38,404 nt of DNA from a virus (lineage: Duplodnaviria; Heunggongvirae; Uroviricota; Caudoviricetes): the IMG/VR virus record IMGVR_UViG_2541047879_000002; one strand, 5' to 3'. The position numbers were made by a program, and so were the translations under genes. The first letter of the stretch is position 1. The number at the start of each line of letters is the position of its first letter. Of this stretch, positions 4,187 through 38,404 are shown piece by piece. The notes under the pieces were generated by a model. The model was not told the origin of the DNA. It saw only the letters and a list, made by a program, of their open reading frames with translations, and did no database searches.

Positions 4187-4927
4187 TTAACTGGCGGTGA
4201 CGGTAATTTCTGCAACCGCAGCAAACTCACCATTACCGGATACAACCGGAATGTTGACCTTGCCTGCAGCAACGCCGTTCACGGTGATGGTCATACCACT
4301 GACCGACACGGTGGCTTTTGTTTTATCCACAGACACCGCACGAAAGCTCTTGTCGGTTACGCCCTCCGGCTGGAAGGCCACGGTCAGCGTGGTGCTCTGC
4401 CCTTTCACTACGGAAGCACTGGCTGGCGTTACCGTCATGCCGGTGGCCGCTGTTACCGTGCTGCGATCTTCTGCCATCGACGGACGTCCCACATTGGTGA
4501 CTTTCACCGTGCGGGTGATCACTTCCTTCGCCGTCACCGCCTTACCGATACTGCTGACCCAGCCACAGAACACATCGACCGTGCCGTTCGGGAAGCGGAT
4601 TTTATAGACACGGGTATCGCCTTCATTAAACCACGCCAGCAGCGCCTGCTGCCCCTGCTCTCCGGGCATCCACGCCAGCGTGAAGCTGGTATCTCCGGCA
4701 GATTTCTGCCCCTGCCCGGTCGCAGTCCAGTCTGCATCTTCATCATCGAGATAGCTGTCGTCATAGGACTCAGCGGTCAGTTCGCCGGGCGTCAGGTCTT
4801 TAACTTTTGCCAGACGCGACCAGTCAACGTCTGAAAGCGGATTCGCATAAGGGTCACCGCTCCCCTTATAAACCCACAGGGTGGTCCCGGCACCTTTCAC
4901 CGGCATTGTAGGATTTGGTACAGGCAT
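4187..4927 (-). CDS. V: Major tail protein V
   Basis: ORF 4187..4957; likely start at internal [12 protein letters not shown] (246 aa), leaving no overlap with U; Ig-like C-terminal region. Confidence 0.9.
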
Positions 4928-4934
4928 AGCGTCC

Positions 4935-5330
4935 TCACATTTCATAGGTAATGACATAAGTCAGATCGGCTGAACTCCACAGGCCCGCATCATCGTCGCG
5001 CCGGTAGTCATAGCCGCTGGCCACCATACTGGTGATCAAATCTGACAGTGCCGGGATATCGCTCATCACCGGATAAATCCGGGACTCCATCCACGCATCC
5101 AGCTCTGAATCCGGCACCTGAGCAGGCAGGAAAACTTCGATATGCAGCTCCGCCTGCCAGGTATCGCTGTCCAGCTCTTCGCCCGTGTATTCAGCGCCGG
5201 TGAGATAAACGGCAACTGCCGGAAAATCCGCCTCATCAAAAACAGCGGGGCGACCATCAAAAAACGTCGCCCCGGTGTCATGCTTCTCCAGTGCATCCAG
5301 TACGGCTGCACGGAGTTCAGTATGTTTCAT
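4935..5330 (-). CDS. U: Tail terminator protein U
   Basis: 131-aa ORF in lambda order. Confidence 0.9.
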
Positions 5331-14076: not shown

Positions 14077-14310
14077 ATGTCAACGAAGAACAGAACCCGC
14101 AGAACAACAATCCGCAACATCCGCTTTCCTAACCAAATGATTGAACAAATTAACATCGCTCTTGATCAAAAAGGGTCCGGGAATTTCTCAGCCTGGGTCA
14201 TTGAAGCCTGCCGCCGGAGACTGTGCTCAGAAAAAAGAGTTTCGCCTGAAGCAAACAAAGAAAAGAGTGACATTACTGAATTGCTCAGAAAACAGGTTAG
14301 ACCAGATTGA
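14077..14310 (+). CDS. Small DNA-binding-like protein of the YlcI/YnfO prophage family
   Basis: 77-aa basic AT-rich ORF next to cos, opposite orientation to late genes; family assignment from recalled DLP12/Qin gene content. Confidence 0.5.
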   Translation: MSTKNRTRRTTIRNIRFPNQMIEQINIALDQKGSGNFSAWVIEACRRRLCSEKRVSPEANKEKSDITELLRKQVRPD

Positions 14311-14351
14311 AGCAATTTAGATAATCGTGCAGACTACGCCCCTCATATCAC

Positions 14352-14777
14352 ATGGAAGGTACTACAATGGCTCAGGTTGCCATTTTTAAACAAATATTCG
14401 ATAAAGTGCGAAATAATTTAAACTATCACTGGTTTTATTCTGAACTAAAACGTCACAATGTCTCACATTACATTTACTATTTAGCCACAGAGAATATTCA
14501 TCTTGTTCTTGAAAACGATAATACGGTTTTAATAAAAGGACAGGGTAAGGTTGTAAATGTAAGATTTTCAAAAAATAAATGCCTTATAGAAGCCACCTTA
14601 AAAGGATTCAAATCAGGAGAGTTATCATTTTACGAATACAGAAAAAATCTTGCTACAGCAGGGGTTTTCAGATGGATTACAAATATCCACGAAAACAAAA
14701 GGTATTACTATACCTTTGATAATTCATTACTCTTTACTGAGAACATTCAGAACACTACACAAATATTTCCGCACTAA
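14352..14777 (+). CDS. YbcV-like DUF1398 family protein
   Basis: 141-aa ORF (alternative start MAQVAIFK) resembling the DLP12 cos-proximal protein YbcV; AT-rich. Confidence 0.65.
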
Positions 14778-15126
14778 ATCATAACGTCCGGTTTCTTCCG
14801 TGCCAGAACCGGACTCGCTGGCATGATGAAATATGTGTACCCGGTAACCCCGGTGTGCATCGTTTTTGATTATTCCCGCACACTCACGCAGAAGGAGTTC
14901 CCCGTCGGGCTACGGTCTCTGTTAATACGGGAATACGGCGACGATACAGCGCATGATGTGTCAGGCTTGAATGCCTTTATCCGTTAAAAGGGATATCAGT
15001 TAAGTTATCCCGTGCAGGGTATAAGCCATTATCAAGCCCACCCGTAGATGGGCTTTGTAATGGATAGCCGTTGCTCAGTTCTAGTAATGCTTTGATTTTT
15101 TCGATAACGCAGTTTTGCGTTTGCCA

Positions 15127-15648
15127 TCAGCACCCGATATCGAGAGTCAACTGCAGTTGCTCGCGCCAGTACTCAACATTTGCTTCAATAACCGGCTTAT
15201 CCCATCGCCAGCGAGCCATCTCTCTTGCCCCATTGCTGGCTTTTGATTTCCGGTCATCGCGAATGCGACATGCTTGCTCATATTTCTGCTGCTCAGTCAG
15301 TTCACCGCGAAGCAGACTATCAATGTGCAGGTCGCACCACACAGCAAAACGAGCATCACACCAACGGGCAAATGCAACTGAAAGTTTTGGATGTAGCCAC
15401 GTACCACCACCCCTGTCCTTTCGTGCCTTGCTGGTTTTTACATACCTCGATTGTGAGGGATGTAAAATTTGAGATTCTTTCCCGGTCAACGCTTCGTCTA
15501 AAGCACGAACGTATTCAAGCGTTTCTGCCAAACGCATCCAGTTATCAATGCGTTTCCCAAATCTCTCAGCAACACCTGTGACGTTGATCCAACCATCAGT
15601 GTTGAAACTGACAATTTCACCTTTGTAATTAAGTGGCACGATATTCAT
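15127..15648 (-). CDS. KilA-N domain-containing protein
   Basis: 173-aa ORF with KilA-N-like N-terminus, including GGTWLHPKLSVAFARW. Confidence 0.55.
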   Translation of the reverse strand: MNIVPLNYKGEIVSFNTDGWINVTGVAERFGKRIDNWMRLAETLEYVRALDEALTGKESQILHPSQSRYVKTSKARKDRGGGTWLHPKLSVAFARWCDARFAVWCDLHIDSLLRGELTEQQKYEQACRIRDDRKSKASNGAREMARWRWDKPVIEANVEYWREQLQLTLDIGC

Positions 15649-15852
15649 AACGTTTACCTACCATTTGAAATGAACCTTTGCCGCACAGGAAACCAGCCCA
15701 CCGAGGCTCGCCAGCACTAACTGGTATCCTCAAAGGCCCATTCCAAAGGGGCAGGTTCGGTGTAAAAAAAACATGCGTTGCGGTACGCATTTATTGCAAA
15801 AAAGCCCCGCATCGCGAGGCTCATTAAATGGACTTTGTGATTTGCAAAAAAA

Positions 15853-16290
15853 TTATTTCAGACATTGCGTCCTGATGTACTCCTGCAGGTAGTTAACCTG
15901 CGCGGTTATCCTGTCGATTCCACTTCGGAGACGGTAATAATTGAGTTCAGCATCTGCTGTAAGTCTTGGGCTTTCTCCATCGCCCATGCTGCTGGCTCCG
16001 GTCTTTGACTTTGCACAGGAGGCGGCGACTTGCAGCCGCTTACGCCCAGCAGAAACATCATCACGGAGACTTTCGATAGTCGCGTTAGCATCAGCAAGCT
16101 CCTTTGTATATCTGGCATCGAGTTCTGCTACGTCACGTTGACGCTTCTGCATGTCAGCGATGATGGATGTGGCTTTGTCGCGCTGTTCTTTGTAGGTCAT
16201 GGCGTTATCACGGTAATGATTAACAGCCCATGACAGGCAGACGATGATGCAGATAACCAGAGCGGAGATAATCGCAGTTACTCTGCTCAT
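15853..16290 (-). CDS. Rz: Spanin inner-membrane subunit Rz
   Basis: ORF 15853..16302; start [21 protein letters not shown] (N-terminal TM helix) overlaps the R stop. Confidence 0.85.
15906..16091 (-). CDS. Rz1: Spanin outer-membrane lipoprotein Rz1, embedded in the +1 frame of Rz
   Basis: Internal start gives [20 protein letters not shown]... with a lipobox Cys followed by a Pro-rich segment, fully inside Rz. Confidence 0.7.
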
Positions 16291-17587: not shown

Positions 17588-18670
17588 ATGAAAAAATTAA
17601 CAGTGGCAATTTCTGCTGTAGCTGCATCAGTACTGATGGCGATGTCTGCTCAGGCAGCTGAAATTTATAATAAAGACAGTAACAAGCTGGATCTGTACGG
17701 GAAAGTTAATGCTAAGCACTACTTCTCCTCTAATGATGCAGATGATGGTGATACTACTTATGCCCGTCTTGGCTTCAAAGGTGAAACCCAAATCAACGAT
17801 CAACTGACTGGTTTCGGTCAGTGGGAATATGAATTCAAAGGCAACCGCGCTGAATCTCAAGGTTCCTCCAAAGATAAAACCCGTCTTGCCTTCGCTGGCC
17901 TGAAATTCGGTGACTACGGCTCCATCGATTATGGCCGTAACTACGGTGTAGCATACGATATTGGTGCATGGACCGACGTTCTGCCAGAATTCGGTGGCGA
18001 TACCTGGACCCAAACAGATGTATTCATGACTGGTCGCACCACAGGTGTTGCAACTTATCGTAACAATGACTTCTTTGGTCTGGTTGATGGTCTGAACTTT
18101 GCTGCTCAGTATCAGGGTAAAAATGACCGCACTGACGTAACTGAAGCTAATGGTGATGGTTTCGGTTTCTCCACTACTTATGAGTATGAAGGATTCGGTG
18201 TAGGTGCAACCTATGCTAAATCTGACCGCACTAATAATCAGGTTATCTACGGTAACAACAGCCTGAATGCATCTGGTCAAAATGCTGAAGTATGGGCAGC
18301 TGGTCTGAAATATGATGCGAACAACATCTATCTGGCTACCACCTATTCTGAAACCCAGAACATGACTGTTTTTGGTAATAACCATATTGCCAACAAAGCA
18401 CAAAACTTCGAAGTAGTTGCACAATATCAGTTCGACTTCGGTCTGCGTCCGTCCGTTGCTTACCTGCAATCTAAAGGAAAAGACTTGGGTGCGTGGGGTG
18501 ATCAGGACCTGGTTGAATATATTGATGTAGGTGCAACCTATTACTTCAACAAAAATATGTCCACTTTTGTTGATTACAAAATCAACCTGATTGATAAGAG
18601 CGATTTCACGAAAGCATCTGGCGTTGCTACCGATGATATCGTTGCTGTAGGTATGGTTTACCAGTTCTAA
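17588..18670 (+). CDS. nmpC: OmpC-family general porin (NmpC/Lc type, prophage-encoded)
   Basis: 360-aa ORF with signal peptide [29 protein letters not shown] and C-terminal aromatic residue (...VYQF); between Q and S on the opposite strand. Confidence 0.9.
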
Positions 18671-18858: not shown

Positions 18859-19242
18859 TTAATTAGAGTTATTAACAACGATATCCATCTCTAACCGGAT
18901 ATCTAATGCCATTAACATCCCTTCAATTATGCCCTCAGCCTTCTGTAACCTTTTCCCGATATAACCATCAGAGCAGCAATGCTTACCTGCCAGTGACATG
19001 AATGTCATACCGACTACATAATAATCTACTAATAAATCGTGCAAATCGCTGTTGTTCTTTTTCAGACGGGCCATGCACCCGCAAATAATCATCGCGTCAT
19101 CGTCACAACATTGCGGGCGAGATTTTACTTTTGAAGTAATTAATCCCTTAAAACCGGCGGCAATGGACGACCAGGTCACATCTTCATGATTATTAGCCGC
19201 CCACGCTCCCCAACGCTCAAGAACCATCTGAATATCACGCAT
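18859..19242 (-). CDS. quuD: Late-gene antiterminator Q (phage-82/DLP12 QuuD type)
   Basis: ORF 18859..19257; start [21 protein letters not shown]; Cys-rich ([16 protein letters not shown]). Confidence 0.8.
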
Positions 19243-19324
19243 CAACTTACTCCACAAAACTCAGACCAGAACGCCAATTACAAGCAAAAATCAACAAAAC
19301 AGTATTAGTTGATTGTTATCTCTG

Positions 19325-19465
19325 ACTTCATACTCCTGCTCCTGTCAGTGTTTTGGCGTAATTCTTCAGTATTCGGTAATCGGTCAAAACAGAGCCGGGG
19401 AAACGATATAAGCGCAGACGCCCCCAGCGGTGGCGAAGAAGTTCTGCCATATTAAACTCAAACAT
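19325..19465 (-). CDS. Small ORF between rusA and Q (YlcG-like by position)
   Basis: Own translation [46 protein letters not shown]; start overlaps the rusA stop; below the ORF-track size cutoff. Confidence 0.4.
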
Positions 19466-19827
19466 CATTCATTCCCCATTTCGGTGATGGTCAGTTCCAG
19501 CCTCCCACCTTTGGTAACAGGCATCTTCACAACGCGGTAATCAACGACCTGAGCATCATCCAGCCAGAAACCTGCTTTAGTGAGTGCGTCAAAAGCGGCT
19601 TTTTGCAGATTATCCAGGTCACGGCGACGGCGATCCGGCATGTGGCACTCAATGCGGATTTTCACAGGCATAGCCAGGCCGATATCCAGCATTGCGTTTT
19701 TAATGATTCGGGCGACGTTATCGCGGTATGCCTGCCCCTCTGCGCTGACGTGCGTGCGCCCGCGATTATGGCGGTAATAGCGATTATTGCTCGGAGGCCA
19801 GGGTAATGTGATGCTGTAGGTATTCAC
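19465..19827 (-). CDS. rusA: Holliday-junction resolvase RusA
   Basis: 120-aa [26 protein letters not shown]... in the nin region. Confidence 0.9.
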
Positions 19828-20114
19828 GCCTTAATAACCCCCTCTTTCAGCCAGATAACCTGTGTTCTCGCCATACCTTCCAGCGCGCATTCTTTTGCAT
19901 ATGCAGCATCGACAAAATGTGTGCGGCGGTCGATTTCGTCGTGGCAGGCAGAACATGCAATGGTGGCAATCAGGTCTGGCGGTTTGGTACCGGTGCCGCA
20001 CAATCCAGTCAGCCGGATATGTGCCAGTACAGACGTTTCAGGGTTGCCATTACATACGCCAGGGATTCTTACCTGGCATTCCCGACTACGCGCTGCTTTT
20101 CTCAAATCAGCCAT
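19824..20114 (-). CDS. ybcO: YbcO-like DUF1364 putative nuclease
   Basis: ORF 19824..20153 trimmed to [23 protein letters not shown]... (96 aa), preceded by AAGGAGG; Cys-rich. Confidence 0.7.
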
Positions 20115-20277
20115 GATTCCTCCTTGCTGCCAGTCGCAACCATTTTTTATCAACCAGGCTGGCGGTATATCCGAGCAGTGTTGGTATTTCGGAAGGCTTC
20201 AGCTCCGGTTTACGCTTACGACGATCTGGTACTCTGTAGATGTGTCCGTTCATGACACGAATAAGCGGTGTAGCCAT
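20107..20277 (-). CDS. ninE: NinE-like protein
   Basis: Own translation [56 protein letters not shown] (56 aa); start overlaps the ninB stop, stop overlaps the ybcO start. Confidence 0.6.
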   Translation of the reverse strand: MATPLIRVMNGHIYRVPDRRKRKPELKPSEIPTLLGYTASLVDKKWLRLAARRNHG

Positions 20278-20732
20278 TACGCCTCCTGCTTGTCGCGGAG
20301 CAGCTGGAACTCGCAGCTCTGCGGAATAGTCAGGTGGCAGCCAATATTCACCGCCCAGGCTTCAACCTTACACAGGAAGACATACATCTCTCCGGTATCA
20401 AGATCGGAGGTATGGCGTAACGACTGGATAGTGGTGATATCACCGGTTACGACATCAACCAGGTCTTTGGTTTCATAACCGAGATATGTGTGTTTGAGAG
20501 CATCTTTTACCCAAGCTGGAGTAGCGAACGTTTTACCGCTGCTGATGAGGTATTCACTGATTTCGCTGTACCACATGTGGCTGAGTGCATTCTGGGAAAG
20601 ACTGCGTTTCTCACGCCACGGTTTAAGCACCATGCGAAAGCATTTGCCCTCCTCCAGATAAGGCTGGATCTGCCGACCGATAGCGGTGAAGTTACCGCGA
20701 TGTAATTTGATGCCATCTTGTGGGAGATTCAC
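20277..20732 (-). CDS. ninB: NinB/Orf-family recombination mediator (YbcN-like)
   Basis: 151-aa ORF containing [12 protein letters not shown], resembling the NinB core motif. Confidence 0.7.
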
Positions 20733-20919
20733 GCTTCACCTCCGCAGAGGTCAAACGCTGGATACAATATATCGCAGGTGCATTTCTGCATCTGTGGAGG
20801 GAGAAGAGAGTTTGGATTGTGTGTGCGCATAAACGTCCCCGTTTAGCGCAGAAGTCACCGGAGTTGTTCAGGCTCCGATGACATGATTATGGCGAGTTGA
20901 TTATCGCAAATCAAAGGTT

Positions 20920-21276
20920 TTAATTGTGCTTTATTCCTTCAAGCGTTGCCTTCATACCAACCAAAGAAATGTTTAGCTCTCCAACTTTCTCAGGGCTATA
21001 TAATTCAGAATGAAGCCAATATTCTGATTTATCTAAACATCTTTTAGCCAGCTCTCGATCAAAGTCTACGACTTGGGAAGACGCTTCATACCAAAGCCTA
21101 TAAAGTTTTTCTTCTTCGTTTGGGTTATTAGACTCACCACGTTTTAATTTTTCAGTATATAAAATTGTTGAATAAATCGCAGGAGTTAATCCAGTGATTG
21201 CCCTCTGCCGCAGATCGGATTTGTTTGTTATCCACCCCAACAGACGATCTCCCATCCATGTGATAATTGTATCCAT
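20920..21276 (-). CDS. Hypothetical protein, AT-rich accessory gene
   Basis: 118-aa ORF with no family I can assign; composition differs from flanking phage core. Confidence 0.45.
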   Translation of the reverse strand: MDTIITWMGDRLLGWITNKSDLRQRAITGLTPAIYSTILYTEKLKRGESNNPNEEEKLYRLWYEASSQVVDFDRELAKRCLDKSEYWLHSELYSPEKVGELNISLVGMKATLEGIKHN

Positions 21277-21737
21277 GCTTTAGCCCTTCTTAGTAAATAG
21301 TGTGTAGGGCGACTGAAGGACCGAGTTTATGCTTTTTCGCATTGCTTTCAGTTAGTACACCGGTATCGCACCGGAAACAATCCTACGGCAAATTGGTTGT
21401 CTGACCTCTCGGTTTTTCGTGCATTAACCGATACCCACTACAGTCTCGGCGAAAGCTGCACCCCCCCAGGGTGTACTGGTAGCACTCGGCACAGCCTAGC
21501 ACGCCACTTTCTTCTCACTATCCAGTCTAATTTTATCCCCTAGTCAGACACTCAGATGTAGTGCTCCGCAGCGGCATGCGGGGGAATACAAAAACTCGGA
21601 CAAAATTGGGCCCTCCTTTTTGAATCACTCGCGGGGATGTAATTATTAATACATGGAAAAAGATCTGTTTTCAAATCCAACATTATATGGTTTCAATACC
21701 ACGGGGTGGCTATGTGTTTCTCATTGTTAATTGGAAT

Positions 21738-22061
21738 CTACTGTAATCGATCCGAACGTAAATGCGGCAAAACTCGACTCCACTTATCATCCTGCCACGG
21801 CCGGAATTTTACATGTGCCGTTTCTCTGGCAAGGATTGCCTGTGCCTTATTGAGTATCTGGGGATATTCTTGCTCGATAGAAGTGAAGCGACCAGCTTCA
21901 CGATGCTCCGCAACCTGAAGAAGAGGAGTAACGTTCTGGTAGGTAATTAACATCACATTCCCTGCTCGCCATAACCAGGCGAGTGTGCAAAGTTCGTTAT
22001 CAGTGAATTGTTTTGTGATTGGGTATTGTTGAACTGCTAGAACGAGAACGCCAGCATCCAT
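21738..22061 (-). CDS. Hypothetical protein
   Basis: 107-aa ORF between the serine recombinase and a long non-coding stretch; no family assigned. Confidence 0.4.
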   Translation of the reverse strand: MDAGVLVLAVQQYPITKQFTDNELCTLAWLWRAGNVMLITYQNVTPLLQVAEHREAGRFTSIEQEYPQILNKAQAILARETAHVKFRPWQDDKWSRVLPHLRSDRLQ

Positions 22062-22172
22062 TGGCAGTCTCTATAGTAAAACCATAGCTCAGGACGCTTC
22101 GTTCAGGATAGATAATTTTATTGTACTTACCTAACTTTCTTATTATAGCACGGTTGAAAAAGTGATTATTAC

Positions 22173-23699
22173 TCAAAAATAAACCTCACCATCAACCATA
22201 TATTTGAGAGTACTTATCGCCTGCTGGGCGGATATTGTTTTCATTAAAGGATAGTGTTTAAAAACAATGCCATTCATAAAATAGATATCACAGGTTTTAT
22301 TATCTGTATTGATTATGATTTTTTCGAATGTTTTATAGGCAAGTGTACGACATAGCTCTCGCCCATTTTTACTGGTTAAGTCAATAGCATGAAAATCACC
22401 AAGTGAACTCACCGCTTTACTCTTCAAAGTTTTTAATGATACAGAAGCCCTTCGTAATTCCTTATCTAATACTCTGATTTTTTCTGCTATAGCGGTAACT
22501 TCAGGCGCAACAGATAATGCAGCAATTAAATTATTAATTTTCATCTGGAGCTCAATAATTTTCAACTCTAAAGTTTCATTAGCATCTTTCTTGTTTTCAA
22601 CTGGTTGGATTTTACTACAATTAAAAAGCAACTCATTAATGATATTATAATCAACCAAATCTCTCTTTATTGATGGCCTGTCACATCGATGCAGTCTTCT
22701 CATCGGACAAACATAATAGCCATGCAAACTTCCAGATACCGCATGAACAATCATGGTATTACCACAAGCCTCGCACTTCATAACTGTTCGAAGTAGATTT
22801 ATCAACATAGGATTTTTGCTACTATTGCTAATACCAAAAGGTGCCAACCGAATTTCCTGTACAGCGTAAAACAAATCATCTGATATGACTCTGGGATAAT
22901 AGCCAGCGATTTCACTTATTCCTTTACCTCTTGCACGATATGAAGGTACGCATATACCTATCAGAGCTTTATTCGCTAATAATTTTTCAATTACAGAAGG
23001 TCCCCATGCACTTTCTTTTCCTGAGAAATTCTTTACAGCATGATCATTTAAATACTTGGCTATTGCATTCAATGAGCGCCTTTCCATCCTGAGTTTAAAA
23101 ATTAGCTCAATAGTTTTCACCCTGTCGGGGTCTGGAACAAAAGCCGTTCTTTTGTCATCTAAGGAGAGCCATCTCGGACAAGACGCCGTCATAATCGTAC
23201 CTGATTCCAGTGCATCCTGCCGTTTTTTCTTCCATGATAATTTAACCCGACTTGACTTTATCTCGCTTTCTTCATTTGCCCTTTGTGCTATAAGTATGGC
23301 TTTTATTAATGAATATGGCTCATTCAAAGAGTCAATATTATAGACTGTATTGTCGCAAAGAGTTATAACATCAATACCGTGATTCAAAATCAATTTCAGA
23401 CGTTCAATCGCTTCACCGACTTTTTCTCTTGAAAGTCTGTCCAGACTTTCAACTAACAATGTAGTTCCTGGCAATATATAACCATGCTCTATAGCATCTA
23501 AAAATTCCGAAAAAGCTCCTGATTGTGCATGCTTTCCTTTGAATGCACTTAATCCTAAATCTTCATATGTTATGGTATCAAGATAATAATCACTATTTAC
23601 CTTTAACCATTCAGCAATAAGTCTTCTCTGTCGGTTTAATGAGTCGCCAGACATCTGACCTGGTGATGAAAATCGCATATATGCTATGGCTTTTTTCAT
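22173..23699 (-). CDS. ybcK: Large serine recombinase (YbcK-like)
   Basis: 508-aa ORF with resolvase-type N-terminus MKKAIAYMRFSSPGQ (catalytic Ser), recombinase domain and Cys-rich zinc-ribbon-like segment CEACGN...CPMRRLHRC. Confidence 0.85.
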   Translation of the reverse strand: MKKAIAYMRFSSPGQMSGDSLNRQRRLIAEWLKVNSDYYLDTITYEDLGLSAFKGKHAQSGAFSEFLDAIEHGYILPGTTLLVESLDRLSREKVGEAIERLKLILNHGIDVITLCDNTVYNIDSLNEPYSLIKAILIAQRANEESEIKSSRVKLSWKKKRQDALESGTIMTASCPRWLSLDDKRTAFVPDPDRVKTIELIFKLRMERRSLNAIAKYLNDHAVKNFSGKESAWGPSVIEKLLANKALIGICVPSYRARGKGISEIAGYYPRVISDDLFYAVQEIRLAPFGISNSSKNPMLINLLRTVMKCEACGNTMIVHAVSGSLHGYYVCPMRRLHRCDRPSIKRDLVDYNIINELLFNCSKIQPVENKKDANETLELKIIELQMKINNLIAALSVAPEVTAIAEKIRVLDKELRRASVSLKTLKSKAVSSLGDFHAIDLTSKNGRELCRTLAYKTFEKIIINTDNKTCDIYFMNGIVFKHYPLMKTISAQQAISTLKYMVDGEVYF

Positions 23700-23955
23700 G
23701 GTGACACCTGCTAACGTATGCTTTTATAAACCTTAGTGGTGGGATATAATTTTTGTTTAATTTTTATTTAAAAAGACAATTAAGGTCACATTATCTTGAA
23801 TATACAACAATAATCGTATTGCAATTTTCTTACGCCATAATCTTGAAAGCACAAAAGAATACATAAAAAAATAAAGACATTAACAAAAAGCATAAAACGA
23901 GGCTCATATAAATATAAGAGCCTCCATATTTTAGTCGTTTAGAAACAAATTATTT

Positions 23956-24288
23956 TTAATGTGGTGTGCTTCGTGACAATAAATTAATAACCAACACACC
24001 GGCACAAATCAACATCATGCCTATAATGGCTGGCAGGTCCAGCCGTTGGCCGAAAAGTCCCCATGACAGTAAGCTAATCAGGACAATACCGACTCCTGAC
24101 CAGATAGCATAAGCAATCCCTGTAGGAATATAAGCCAGCGTCTGAGCTAATAACCAGAATGATGCACAATAACAAATAATTGTACCAACAGATGGCCATA
24201 ACCGTGTAAAACCTTCTGAAAACTTCATTAAGGTTGTACCAATGACCTCTGCAAGTATTGCACCACCAAGATAAATATAAGGGTTCAT
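23956..24288 (-). CDS. emrE: Small multidrug resistance efflux transporter EmrE
   Basis: ORF 23956..24342 trimmed to MNPYIYLGGAILAEVIGTTLMKFSEGF... (110 aa, four TM helices). Confidence 0.9.
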   Translation of the reverse strand: MNPYIYLGGAILAEVIGTTLMKFSEGFTRLWPSVGTIICYCASFWLLAQTLAYIPTGIAYAIWSGVGIVLISLLSWGLFGQRLDLPAIIGMMLICAGVLVINLLSRSTPH

Positions 24289-24355
24289 AGAATATTCTTT
24301 CCTGTTCAAACTGGAGAGAATTGTACTACAGTTTGAACTCAACTCACCTGTTTCA

Positions 24356-24658
24356 TCATTGTGTACCCATTGATGTTCTTTTATATACCCTCAATACCCG
24401 TTTCATCGCGGCACTCTGGCGACACTCCTTAAAAATCAGATTCGTGCTCACCTTTCCTTCCCGTTCTTCTCTGGTAGCAAACCGGTAATACACCGTTCGC
24501 CAGACCTTACCTTCGATAACCAGAAGACCTGCCCGTGCCATTTTAGCCGCAGCCTGATTTATGCTGGTTACCGTTGCGCCTGTTACCGCGGCAACGTCCT
24601 GCGCACAGAATTTCTTATGAGTCCCCAGGTAATGAATAATTGCCTCTTTGCCCGTCAT
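24356..24658 (-). CDS. ren: Ren protein
   Basis: 100-aa ORF MTGKEAIIHYLGTH... directly downstream of P. Confidence 0.8.
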   Translation of the reverse strand: MTGKEAIIHYLGTHKKFCAQDVAAVTGATVTSINQAAAKMARAGLLVIEGKVWRTVYYRFATREEREGKVSTNLIFKECRQSAAMKRVLRVYKRTSMGTQ

Positions 24659-34235: not shown

Positions 34236-34457
34236 ATGGCAGACATCATTGATTCGGCATCAGAAATCGAAGAATTACAGCGCAATACAGCAATAAAAAT
34301 GCGTCGTCTGAACTACCAGACTGTATCCGCAACTCATTGTTGTGAGTGTGGCGATCCGATAGATGAACGAAGACGCCTGGTCGTTCAGGGTTGTCGGACT
34401 TGTGCAAGTTGCCAGGAGGATCTGGAGCTTATCAGTAAACAGAGAGGTTCGAAGTGA
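34236..34457 (+). CDS. TraR/DksA-family C4 zinc-finger protein
   Basis: 73-aa ORF with CCECGDPIDERRR...CRTCASC. Confidence 0.7.
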   Translation: MADIIDSASEIEELQRNTAIKMRRLNYQTVSATHCCECGDPIDERRRLVVQGCRTCASCQEDLELISKQRGSK

Positions 34458-35719: not shown

Positions 35720-35938
35720 ATGTACTTGACACTTCAGGAGTGGAACGCACGCCAGCGACGCCCAAGAAGCCTTGAAACAGTTCGTCGATGGGTACGCGAG
35801 TGCAGGATATTCCCTCCTCCGGTTAAGGATGGAAGAGAGTATCTGTTCCACGAATCAGCGGTAAAGGTTGACTTAAATCGACCAGTAACAGGTAGCCTTT
35901 TGAAGAGGATCAGAAATGGGAAGAAGGCGAAGTCATGA
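35720..35938 (+). CDS. xis: Excisionase Xis
   Basis: 72-aa ORF MYLTLQEWNARQRRPRSLETVRRWVRECRIFPPPVKDGREYLF... Confidence 0.95.
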   Translation: MYLTLQEWNARQRRPRSLETVRRWVRECRIFPPPVKDGREYLFHESAVKVDLNRPVTGSLLKRIRNGKKAKS

Positions 35939-36986
35939 GCGCCGGGATTTACCCCCTAACCTTTATATAAGAAACAATGGATATTACTGCTACAGGGACC
36001 CAAGGACGGGTAAAGAGTTTGGATTAGGCAGAGACAGGCGAATCGCAATCACTGAAGCCATACAGGCCAACATTGAGTTATTTTCAGGACACAAACACAA
36101 GCCTCTGACAGCGAGAATCAACAGTGATAATTCCGTTACGTTACATTCATGGCTTGATCGCTACGAAAAAATCCTGGCCAGCAGAGGAATCAAGCAGAAG
36201 ACACTCATAAATTACATGAGCAAAATTAAAGCAATAAGGAGGGGTCTGCCTGATGCTCCACTTGAAGACATCACCACAAAAGAAATTGCGGCAATGCTCA
36301 ATGGATACATAGACGAGGGCAAGGCGGCGTCAGCCAAGTTAATCAGATCAACACTGAGCGATGCATTCCGAGAGGCAATAGCTGAAGGCCATATAACAAC
36401 AAACCCTGTCGCTGCCACTCGCGCAGCAAAATCAGAGGTAAGGAGATCAAGACTTACGGCTGACGAATACCTGAAAATTTATCAAGCAGCAGAATCATCA
36501 CCATGTTGGCTCAGACTTGCAATGGAACTGGCTGTTGTTACCGGGCAACGAGTTGGTGATTTATGCGAAATGAAGTGGTCTGATATCGTAGATGGATATC
36601 TTTATGTCGAGCAAAGCAAAACAGGCGTAAAAATTGCCATCCCAACAACATTGCATGTTGATGCTCTCGGGATATCAATGAAGGAAACACTTGATAAATG
36701 CAAAGAGATTCTTGGCGGAGAAACCATAATTGCATCTACTCGTCGTGAACCGCTTTCATCCGGCACAGTATCAAGGTATTTTATGCGCGCACGAAAAGCA
36801 TCAGGTCTTTCCTTCGAAGGGGATCCGCCTACCTTTCACGAGTTGCGCAGTTTGTCTGCAAGACTCTATGAGAAGCAGATAAGCGATAAGTTTGCTCAAC
36901 ATCTTCTCGGGCATAAGTCGGACACCATGGCATCACAGTATCGTGATGACAGAGGCAGGGAGTGGGACAAAATTGAAATCAAATAA
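35916..36986 (+). CDS. int: Integrase Int (tyrosine recombinase)
   Basis: 356-aa ORF overlapping xis 3' end; C-terminal catalytic region ...HELRSLSARLY...LLGHKSDTMASQYRDD. Confidence 0.95.
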   Translation: MGRRRSHERRDLPPNLYIRNNGYYCYRDPRTGKEFGLGRDRRIAITEAIQANIELFSGHKHKPLTARINSDNSVTLHSWLDRYEKILASRGIKQKTLINYMSKIKAIRRGLPDAPLEDITTKEIAAMLNGYIDEGKAASAKLIRSTLSDAFREAIAEGHITTNPVAATRAAKSEVRRSRLTADEYLKIYQAAESSPCWLRLAMELAVVTGQRVGDLCEMKWSDIVDGYLYVEQSKTGVKIAIPTTLHVDALGISMKETLDKCKEILGGETIIASTRREPLSSGTVSRYFMRARKASGLSFEGDPPTFHELRSLSARLYEKQISDKFAQHLLGHKSDTMASQYRDDRGREWDKIEIK

Positions 36987-37120: not shown

Positions 37121-38404
37121 GTGAACACATTTTCAGTTTCCCGTCTGGCGCTGGCATTGGCTTTTGGCGTGACGCTGACCGCCTGTAGCTCAACCCCGCC
37201 CGATCAACGTCCTTCTGATCAAACCGCGCCTGGTACCTCTTCTCGCCCGATTCTGTCGGCAAAAGAAGCGCAGAATTTCGATGCTCAACACTATTTTGCA
37301 TCCCTGACACCAGGTGCTGCAGCGTGGAATCCTTCCCCGATTACCCTGCCTGCGCAACCTGACTTTGTTGTCGGCCCGGCGGGCACTCAAGGTGTAACGC
37401 ATACCACGATTCAGGCGGCGGTAGATGCGGCAATTATCAAGCGTACCAACAAGCGCCAGTATATTGCCGTGATGCCTGGTGAGTATCAGGGAACGGTATA
37501 TGTCCCTGCCGCTCCGGGTGGAATTACTCTGTACGGTACAGGTGAAAAACCGATTGATGTGAAGATTGGGCTTTCCCTTGATGGTGGCATGAGCCCTGCC
37601 GACTGGCGTCACGACGTCAACCCGCGCGGCAAATATATGCCAGGTAAACCAGCGTGGTATATGTACGATAGCTGCCAGAGCAAACGCAGCGACAGTATCG
37701 GTGTTCTCTGCTCTGCGGTCTTCTGGTCACAAAACAATGGCCTGCAACTGCAAAATCTGACCATCGAAAACACGCTGGGCGATAGCGTAGATGCAGCTAA
37801 CCATCCGGCGGTGGCACTGCGTACTGATGGTGACCAGGTACAGATTAACAACGTTAACATTCTCGGTCGTCAGAACACCTTCTTTGTCACCAACAGCGGT
37901 GTGCAGAACCGTCTGGAAACCAACCGTCAGCCGCGTACGCTGGTGACCAACAGCTACATTGAAGGGGATGTGGATATCGTTTCTGGTCGCGGCGCAGTGG
38001 TGTTCGATAACACCGAATTCCGCGTGGTGAACTCACGTACTCAGCAAGAAGCGTATGTGTTTGCACCGGCTACGCTGTACAACATTTACTACGGTTTCCT
38101 CGCCGTAAACAGCCGTTTCAATGCTTTCGGTGATGGTGTGGCGCAACTGGGCCGCTCGCTGGATGTTGATGCCAATACCAACGGTCAGGTGGTGATCCGT
38201 GATAGCGCCATCAACGAAGGTTTTAACACGGCTAAACCGTGGGCCGATGCGGTGATCTCTAATCGTCCGTTTGCGGGTAATACCGGCAGCGTAGATGATA
38301 ACGACGAAATACAGCGCAATCTGAATGACACTAACTACAACCGCATGTGGGAATACAATAACCGCGGCGTGGGTAGTAAAGTGGTTGCAGAGGCGAAGAA
38401 GTAA
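37121..38404 (+). CDS. ybhC: Host outer-membrane lipoprotein YbhC (pectinesterase-like)
   Basis: 427-aa ORF with lipoprotein signal MNTFSVSRLALALAFGVTLTACSS; in E. coli this gene flanks the lambda attachment site. Confidence 0.85.
   Translation: MNTFSVSRLALALAFGVTLTACSSTPPDQRPSDQTAPGTSSRPILSAKEAQNFDAQHYFASLTPGAAAWNPSPITLPAQPDFVVGPAGTQGVTHTTIQAAVDAAIIKRTNKRQYIAVMPGEYQGTVYVPAAPGGITLYGTGEKPIDVKIGLSLDGGMSPADWRHDVNPRGKYMPGKPAWYMYDSCQSKRSDSIGVLCSAVFWSQNNGLQLQNLTIENTLGDSVDAANHPAVALRTDGDQVQINNVNILGRQNTFFVTNSGVQNRLETNRQPRTLVTNSYIEGDVDIVSGRGAVVFDNTEFRVVNSRTQQEAYVFAPATLYNIYYGFLAVNSRFNAFGDGVAQLGRSLDVDANTNGQVVIRDSAINEGFNTAKPWADAVISNRPFAGNTGSVDDNDEIQRNLNDTNYNRMWEYNNRGVGSKVVAEAKK

Follow-up and report, generated by a model that had tools for sequence, protein, structure and literature searches.

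The stretch of DNA analysed here, IMG/VR record IMGVR_UViG_2541047879_000002 (38,404 nucleotides, called the window throughout), holds a lambda-like prophage in which two accessory genes lie between the replication module and the nin genes: emrE, encoding a small multidrug resistance (SMR) efflux transporter, and ybcK, encoding a 508-aa large serine recombinase (LSR). YbcK is a complete, selectively maintained protein of the serine integrase type, and the reading that we favour, and consider fairly probable, is that both are genes of an accessory slot that are moved by mosaic recombination, with YbcK serving the phage. The interval would then represent the fixed left part of a slot located between ren and ninB in lambda-like phages, and this part would hold two low-G+C genes that were acquired separately. 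The pair itself consists of genes long annotated in the DLP12 prophage of Escherichia coli K-12, and its location is of a kind already described; the observation is correct but unremarkable.

Transcription on the minus strand between 20277 and 26372 runs through O (25353-26372) and P (24655-25356), for both of which the expected Pfam family was found, then ren (24356-24658; a 100-aa Ren-like exclusion protein, PHROG 142, E=6e-42), emrE (23956-24288), an AT-rich spacer (23700-23955), ybcK (22173-23699), a 107-aa open reading frame (ORF; 21738-22061), a 118-aa ORF (20920-21276; match to PHROG 12412) and ninB, also called ybcN (20277-20732; Pfam NinB and annotation), the first conserved nin gene past the slot. 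A second spacer (22062-22172), in which homology to other ybcK-bearing lineages stops at differing points, separates ybcK from the 107-aa ORF, and the 118-aa ORF is included in a variable part of the slot (20916-21737, minus strand). The sequence-only reading had placed a 508-aa large serine recombinase and emrE between ren and the nin genes, oriented with the early-right genes and far from the int/att module, and all of this is borne out: the ORFs and their Pfam and NCBIfam matches identify the two genes, the whole series is on the minus strand, and the primary int/att module, made of lambda-type xis and tyrosine integrase genes, is at 35720-36986 on the plus strand, adjoining the host gene ybhC. 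A 4-kb stretch is moreover present at 99.9% identity in many other E. coli chromosomes, where it is annotated as ybcK, ylcJ and emrE, and the 508-aa ORF and emrE are therefore real genes rather than chance ORFs. G+C content is low in the block (36% in ybcK, 27% in the emrE-ybcK spacer and 42% in emrE) compared with 49-54% in ren, P, and ninB. The 107-aa ORF, which the earlier reading did not describe, is what remains of the C-terminal part of an anti-repressor gene of the P22AR/Ant type (Pfam P22_AR_C, E=1e-15); a full-length anti-repressor of 202 aa is encoded by phage IdasGreatGrand, and homology to its gene stops at about 22048-22067.

Three Pfam families are recognized in YbcK, namely Resolvase (residues 4-161, E=8e-19), Recombinase (191-284, E=2e-14) and Zn_ribbon_recom (302-357, E=8e-8), and its layout is that of a catalytic domain (1-161), a recombinase domain (about 191-284), a zinc ribbon (302-357) and a coiled coil (about 368-428). 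When 20 family members (29-61% identity) are aligned, residues R9, S11, Q15, D87, R88, and R91 are invariant, as are the zinc cysteines C309, C312, C331, and C339. The degenerate enzyme envisaged earlier as an alternative, with its catalytic serine or zinc ribbon lost, was thus not found, and the predicted fold is likewise that of full-length serine integrases. As a single sequence, YbcK gave no match to solved structures, and a family profile was required; this profile matches the A118 integrase (4kis) over the recombinase, zinc and coiled-coil region (E=7e-15), with residues 368-428 aligned to the A118 coiled-coil stretch, and it also matches the catalytic domains of the TP901-1 integrase and of a resolvase. 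An AlphaFold model of YbcK, with a mean predicted local distance difference test (pLDDT) score of 79.5, forms a helical hairpin at 368-428 (helices 368-395 and 401-428) and matches full-length serine integrases in complex with their attachment (att) sites (PhiC31, Bxb1, and A118; E from 2e-18 to 3e-10), although identity to solved integrases is only 13-20%.

YbcK therefore resembles the phage serine integrases (A118/LI, PhiC31, Bxb1, TP901-1), and is matched by PHROG 95 ('integrase') with an E-value of 4e-120: it has the full domain set, the nucleophilic serine and the Arg/Asp constellation. These integrases differ from it in that their genes lie beside attP or attL/R, while ybcK is internal, in the early-right operon of a phage that has a tyrosine integrase, and neither cognate att sites nor a directionality factor could be identified for YbcK. 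The small serine invertases (Pin, Gin, PinQ/PinR) share a homologous N-terminal catalytic domain (PHROG 125, E=2e-21, YbcK residues 1-258), but they are proteins of about 190 aa with a C-terminal helix-turn-helix (HTH), whereas the 508-aa YbcK has recombinase and zinc domains and its gene has no flanking inverted repeats; the near-identical phage Turner encodes a separate small invertase by its tail-fibre genes. YbcK may carry out an independent site-specific reaction at some other place. No recombination substrate and no characterised function of YbcK were found in the papers searched, and neither its accessions nor its N-terminal peptide were found in the searched supplementary tables of an LSR att-site catalogue (Durrant et al., 2022). 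In K-12, the H47 island is still excised in a ybcK mutant (PMC5426353).

The gene is also under strong constraint. The ratio of non-synonymous to synonymous substitution rates (dN/dS) between E. coli alleles of ybcK is 0.05-0.11 at dS values of up to 0.17, close to the 0.05-0.07 obtained for the replication gene P; the ORF is full-length, at 508 aa, in every allele examined, the 90%-identity cluster of YbcK contains 6144 sequences of 508 aa, and the window protein differs from K-12 YbcK by 11 amino acids. These data bear on the proposal that ybcK is a decaying relic of the integrase module of another phage, carried as passive cargo. Such a view would fit with the position of the gene, which is remote from any att site and adjoins a truncated gene, with its transcriptional silencing in K-12 (PMC4150792, PMC10954037), and with its loss both in E. 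coli c1-17, through an IS1-associated truncation, and in the strain F11 gap described below. Constancy of length, invariance of the catalytic and zinc residues, and retention in viable isolated phages all speak against decay, which the dN/dS values largely refute; we consider a relic highly improbable.

The boundaries of the slot were determined by pairwise comparisons with K-12, PhiR34_1, Perceval, and IdasGreatGrand, and with 80 E. coli prophage contigs from IMG/VR. K-12 and PhiR34_1 are homologous to the window at 19200-20915 and 22164-26000; Perceval is homologous up to 20915, then from 21890; IdasGreatGrand, which has neither emrE nor ybcK, is homologous up to 22048, then from 24413, and it is this junction that trims the 202-aa anti-repressor gene to the 107-aa remnant of the window. 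Upstream, the ren-emrE-ybcK linkage is constant in the 80 contigs, insertion sequence (IS) insertions aside. Downstream, homology to the window stops at 22164, 22122, 21961, 21890-21836 or 21756-21772; the K-12 type stops at 22164 and O157 at 22107, so that only 9 bp past the ybcK stop codon are conserved. At least 10 classes of filling follow ybcK in these contigs and all of them rejoin conserved DNA at about 20915, approximately 180 bp before ninB/ybcN. This right edge, shared with K-12, Perceval, O157, and IdasGreatGrand, suggests that position 20915 or so is a preferred boundary for mosaic recombination. The cargo of the slot in related phages varies, with an alpha/beta hydrolase, ybcL-ybcM, PD-lambda-1, or Rha. 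Staggered left ends combined with one common right edge are what point to a mosaic accessory slot, since a site-specific crossover would give a different picture. The literature search returned no specific description of a ren-ninB 'hotspot'.

These junctions also allow evaluation of the proposal, raised by the sequence-only reading, that the block is the footprint of a nested element or is rearranged by its own recombinase. In this scenario, ybcK, with or without emrE, would be the recombinase of a small integrative element inserted in the prophage, the block being that element or what it left behind. The low G+C content of the block relative to its flanks, the truncation of the anti-repressor gene at the right junction, and a discrete 2083-bp presence/absence difference between K-12 and F11 (emrE terminator, ylcJ, ybcK, and about 300 bp) are compatible with it. 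However, the comparison of related prophages showed that the upstream end is always the ren-emrE junction, and that the downstream ends are staggered and vary by lineage. Searches of the window and of K-12 for direct or inverted repeats around the block, of the kind expected of att sites, yielded nothing above the AT-rich background, although such sites, being weak imperfect dyads, may escape detection, and across the whole window no plausible invertible segment is bounded by inverted repeats of 20 nt or more; a 14-nt match at 79% identity, linking 22112-22125 with 23940-23953, was attributed to chance. In the 80 contigs, ybcK never abuts host DNA, and in E. coli the emrE-ybcK segment was only ever found within lambdoid early-right modules. 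A nested element, or movement of the block by its own recombinase, is consequently not supported, and we hold the integrative-element origin to be quite improbable. LSR transposons and integrative elements such as Tn4451 (TnpX), Tn5397 (TndX), and SCCmec (Ccr), do carry an LSR next to a resistance gene in a compositionally distinct segment; compared with these, the block of the window lacks defined ends, a circular form, and a target-site signature.

The favoured reading, i.e., that the block moves with the early-right module through ordinary lambdoid mosaic recombination, being neither nested nor mobilised by YbcK, would also account for its distribution. Of 5426 complete E. coli genomes, 1399, about a quarter, carry both genes, and approximately 2300 more have emrE without ybcK, at about 92% identity. 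The block is also carried by isolated, viable phages: Turner (98.5% identity over the whole 4 kb), Perceval, Lambda_4C10, 4A7, 1W, 3W, and PhiR34_1 with the PhiR series. In DLP12 (YbcK b0544, and EmrE), the order ren-emrE-ylcJ-ybcK and the orientation are the same as in the window, and nucleotide identity is 97.4% over 22164-24569. DLP12 is nonetheless defective and located at argU, and its ren is interrupted by IS3, whereas the window prophage has an intact ren, lambda-type int/xis genes and a position at the lambda site ybhC, and is seemingly complete, its far end being outside the window. The two also differ 3' of ybcK, where the anti-repressor remnant and the 118-aa ORF stand in place of ybcL-ybcM of K-12. 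A location at argU is ruled out for the window prophage by the lambda-type int end at ybhC and by the absence of any tRNA in the window: the lambda-type excisionase (35720-35938) is followed by a tyrosine integrase with a lambda arm-binding domain (35916-36986; Pfam Exc, Phage_integrase, and Arm-DNA-bind_1) and then by host ybhC (37121-38404), the classical lambda attachment site, and the match to the argU prophage of strain KSC207 reaches its limit at position 34420. In this prophage ybcK is internal, about 12 kb from the xis/int module. In O157:H7, the ren-emrE-ybcK module belongs to a remnant prophage located at icd, whose integrase is different again. As the module is thus associated with at least three int/att modules (ybhC in the window, argU, and icd), it travels with the early-right region.

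A different kind of locus is found in strain F11 (NZ_CP076123.1, 2899-6342), where the order fliE-emrE-ybcL-ybcM-porin-yedK shows that only the moron-type genes of a DLP12-like prophage were kept. Relative to K-12, the 2083 bp mentioned above are gone between emrE and ybcL, and the remnant is also devoid of ybcN through quuD and of everything upstream of emrE. The junctions of this indel display no shared core, no dyad arms and no clean empty site. Because the remnant has lost the nin-Q genes as well, deletion is the more parsimonious interpretation than insertion, which again disfavours a nested element. The fact that ybcK was lost along with phage genes from a remnant reduced to morons suggests that it serves the phage and not the host. 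From the extent and identity of the matches, the approximately 2300 emrE-only genomes probably share an F11-type locus, F11 being the one inspected. In E. coli c1-17 (locus 4288-5150), IS1 abuts a remnant of ylcJ, with envY-ybcH-nfrA beyond it, as if an IS1-associated deletion had taken ybcK and the rest of the right arm of the prophage and left emrE in place.

Full-length relatives of YbcK, at 40-61% identity, are found across Enterobacterales, and several occupy prophage ends, where they come after the tail-fibre genes: in Atlantibacter, a relative lies at a prophage edge 540 bp away from ssrA, on the 3' side of that gene and beyond its terminator; in Erwinia, at a prophage edge before lepA; in Ewingella, at a prophage-host junction; and in Yersinia, the relative adjoins a second prophage. 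Since this is the position expected of a phage integrase, these relatives probably act as integrases. Others recur in the nin slot, co-oriented with the operon as in E. coli: in Atlantibacter sp. RC6 (60% identity), the order is O-P-...-C5 methylase-LSR-DinI-DUF1367-NinG-Q, and in Pantoea dispersa (42% identity), it is replication-ParB-LSR-KilA-DUF968-Q. In Pantoea alvi, the LSR gene is in the same slot but reversed, between a full and a partial copy of P, an arrangement that might indicate a nested element; however, insertion into P was rejected, as the two P copies are only about 72% identical, which denotes phage-phage mosaicism rather than target duplication, and the repeats flanking this locus are short and of low identity, as is usual in AT-rich DNA. 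On plasmids, relatives adjoin replication or tyrosine-recombinase genes, such as IncFII repA in one locus (L018), with further cases in L029 and L033. In a Citrobacter koseri region (L013, 6145-9530) that resembles a plasmid or an integrative and conjugative element (TraD, MobA), a 49%-identical relative is divergent from a 555-aa gene with a faint match to Shufflon_N.

The Atlantibacter copies in the nin slot (L022) and at the prophage end by ssrA (L008) encode proteins that are 83% identical, and their nucleotide homology begins 68 bp before the start codon and extends to the stop codon (L008 7933-9530 and L022 9933-11530). Similarly, homology between a Pantoea and a Pluralibacter copy runs from -127 to +4 (L015 7874-9522 and L032 9885-11522). 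Since homology reaches no further than 68-127 bp before the start codon on one side and the stop codon on the other, the gene moves as a bare ORF, and no attP can be recognised downstream. Such gene-sized movement in the wider family is another feature that a nested element could explain. It also fits with the idea that recombinases of the YbcK family provide a selected function that recurs in the early-right (nin) operon of lambdoid phages from several enterobacterial genera, as a second site-specific recombination system independent of the tyrosine integrase, given that the 83%-identical Atlantibacter copies are in a nin slot or at a prophage end and that what travels is the ORF with at most 130 bp upstream. 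Such a system might be used on another site in the chromosome, on a competitor element or on replicon multimers. We regard this version as unlikely.

The same recurrence in E. coli, Atlantibacter RC6, and P. dispersa could alternatively reflect co-option of YbcK, either for an early-operon function acting on host or competitor DNA or in multimer resolution, or for a benefit to the host under stress. The plasmid relatives beside replication genes, and the strong purifying selection despite there being no evident att site nearby, are in line with this, as is the effect of ybcK on sabinene tolerance, which is altered by knockout and by overexpression, the latter raising it (PMC7181518). This phenotype is, however, indirect and comes without a mechanism; every catalytic and DNA-binding module of a standard integrase is kept in YbcK; the PADLOC defence models gave no match for YbcK, nor for EmrE, Ren, or the 107-aa and 118-aa ORFs; and a host benefit is difficult to reconcile with the F11 remnant, which kept the morons and discarded ybcK. 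Co-option is in our opinion unlikely.

In the favoured reading, YbcK would instead most likely serve the phage in a second site-specific integration/excision reaction or in a resolution reaction. Several points weigh against this. The proposed recombination role is an inference, as no att site, substrate or product was found; strong purifying selection on a recombinase that has no cognate site nearby is not really explained by it; the recurrence in the nin slot of three genera could mean a specific early-operon function rather than a generic second integrase; and, with homology between relatives stopping at the stop codon, the gene moves without a recognisable downstream attP. As for the loss of ybcK, the direction of the 2083-bp indel rests on parsimony, not proof, and the extension from F11 to about 2300 genomes would have to hold.

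Like other lambdoid morons and accessory genes of the nin/tR2 region (lom, bor, nmpC), the block is a low-G+C insert between conserved phage genes, and emrE has a terminator. Unlike morons that benefit the host, ybcK is silenced in K-12 and is missing from the F11 remnant that keeps emrE, ybcL, ybcM, and the porin gene. For emrE itself, the coding sequence starts at an ATG at 24288 and encodes 110 aa, a listed 128-aa ORF (23956-24342) being a mechanical extension to a TTG start. The product matches Pfam Multi_Drug_Res (E=5e-35) and the NCBIfam EmrE model (NF042984; 239.6 bits, cutoff 226), is annotated emrE in identical E. coli DNA, and differs from K-12 EmrE by 2 amino acids. A membrane-embedded glutamate, Glu14, is essential in SMR transporters, and it is present here as residue 14 of the translation (MNPYIYLGGAILAEV...). 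With only two differences from K-12 EmrE, the protein is predicted to efflux cationic compounds. The gene is thus, as had been claimed from the sequence, a prophage-borne efflux and resistance determinant, which was already established for DLP12. Expression of emrE is reported to be induced in Dulbecco's modified Eagle's medium (DMEM), among other additional morons, in Perceval, an inducible prophage of strain LF82 (PMC9928086).

On its upstream side, the emrE segment begins within the 3' end of ren, at about 24362-24383: in an alignment with lambda_ev087 and F11, the last nine or so codons of ren are unlike those of lambda-type ren, divergence starting about 27 nt before the stop codon. A palindrome with perfect 10-bp arms (GTTCAAACTG-N15-CAGTTTGAAC, 24304-24338), placed after the stop codon of ren and before the ribosome-binding site of emrE, is kept in the diverged emrE-only locus of F11; its predicted RNA fold is no better than that of shuffled sequences (z=-0.95) and it matches no Rfam family. 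More generally, Rfam revealed no RNA family in 20500-25000 (E<=1) or in the whole window (gathering thresholds), and no riboswitch before emrE. No convincing emrE promoter candidate emerged above shuffles. On the downstream side, an intrinsic terminator (23884-23924, minus strand) consists of a GGAGGCUC...GAGCCUC hairpin and a U-rich tail, with a predicted fold of -14.2 kcal/mol (z=-3.4) that only 1 of 200 shuffles equalled. The emrE gene would seem to be a compact unit of about 415 bp with its own intrinsic terminator, encoding an SMR pump for cationic drugs.

The spacer that precedes ybcK contains a frameshifted version of the small ORF ylcJ (about 23757-23907). The lambda tR2 terminator lies between ren and ninB, inside the early-right pR operon, so that ybcK would be silent in a lysogen and read through under N antitermination. 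The emrE-ybcK spacer of K-12 binds both the RpoD holoenzyme and H-NS, and GTGACC-17-TAAAAA was reported there as an RpoD promoter by systematic evolution of ligands by exponential enrichment (SELEX; PMC3946193); this sequence is present at 23761-23789 in the window. Furthermore, a putative Rho-loading site was described in the untranslated region upstream of ybcK in K-12, where ybcK mRNA levels are increased in Rho and NusG mutants (PMC4150792), and ybcK DNA is a binding site for Hfq that depends on polyphosphate (polyP) (PMC10954037). On this published evidence, ybcK is probably kept largely silent in lysogens by H-NS bound to the spacer, by Hfq with polyP and by Rho-dependent termination within its leader, and we infer that it would be expressed by N-antiterminated read-through from pR after infection or induction. 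The 12-mer TTCAAGATWATG is found in two exact copies on the minus strand, upstream of ybcK (23789-23800 and 23836-23847, 47 bp apart); as a motif it was rejected, with 9 matches versus 6.5 expected from shuffles and one copy altered in Perceval.

Several other features of the window were noted. Within O, three direct repeats with a TTACCTGATTCRGGTAA core (25815-25931), spaced by 47-48 bp, resemble the iterons of lambda-type origins and are overlapped by a palindrome (25867-25902). A 360-aa porin gene (17588-18670, plus strand) separates the Q antiterminator gene from the lysis genes and is encoded on the opposite strand; it is of the ompC/nmpC type according to the annotation of matching KSC207 DNA, and is another classical moron of this phage type. 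The region from the terminase small subunit gene to the lysis genes (14239-16174; G+C 39-48%) differs from both KSC207 and phage Turner, save for a 108-bp island, and constitutes a second variable accessory region, where relatives carry bor/iss. Finally, an IS3-family insertion sequence (29367-30626; HTH_Tnp_1 and rve; ORFs 30261-30569 and 29398-30264, minus strand) is absent from the otherwise near-identical KSC207 prophage and is located at the 3' end of an ORF for a eukaryote-like Ser/Thr protein kinase (28505-29401, plus strand; Pkinase, E=7e-47) in the immunity-side region.

The F11-type remnant, reduced to emrE, ybcL, ybcM, and the porin gene and widespread, provides a tidy example of prophage domestication. 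The puzzle that remains in the intact phages is why viable lambda-like phages, equipped as they are with a tyrosine integrase, keep an intact and selected serine integrase in their early operon. If YbcK were to form a working second system for integration or rearrangement, this would bear on the spread of common prophages and of the resistance and virulence morons that they carry, as well as on the prediction of prophage stability, and would provide a further E. coli-native serine integrase for genome engineering.

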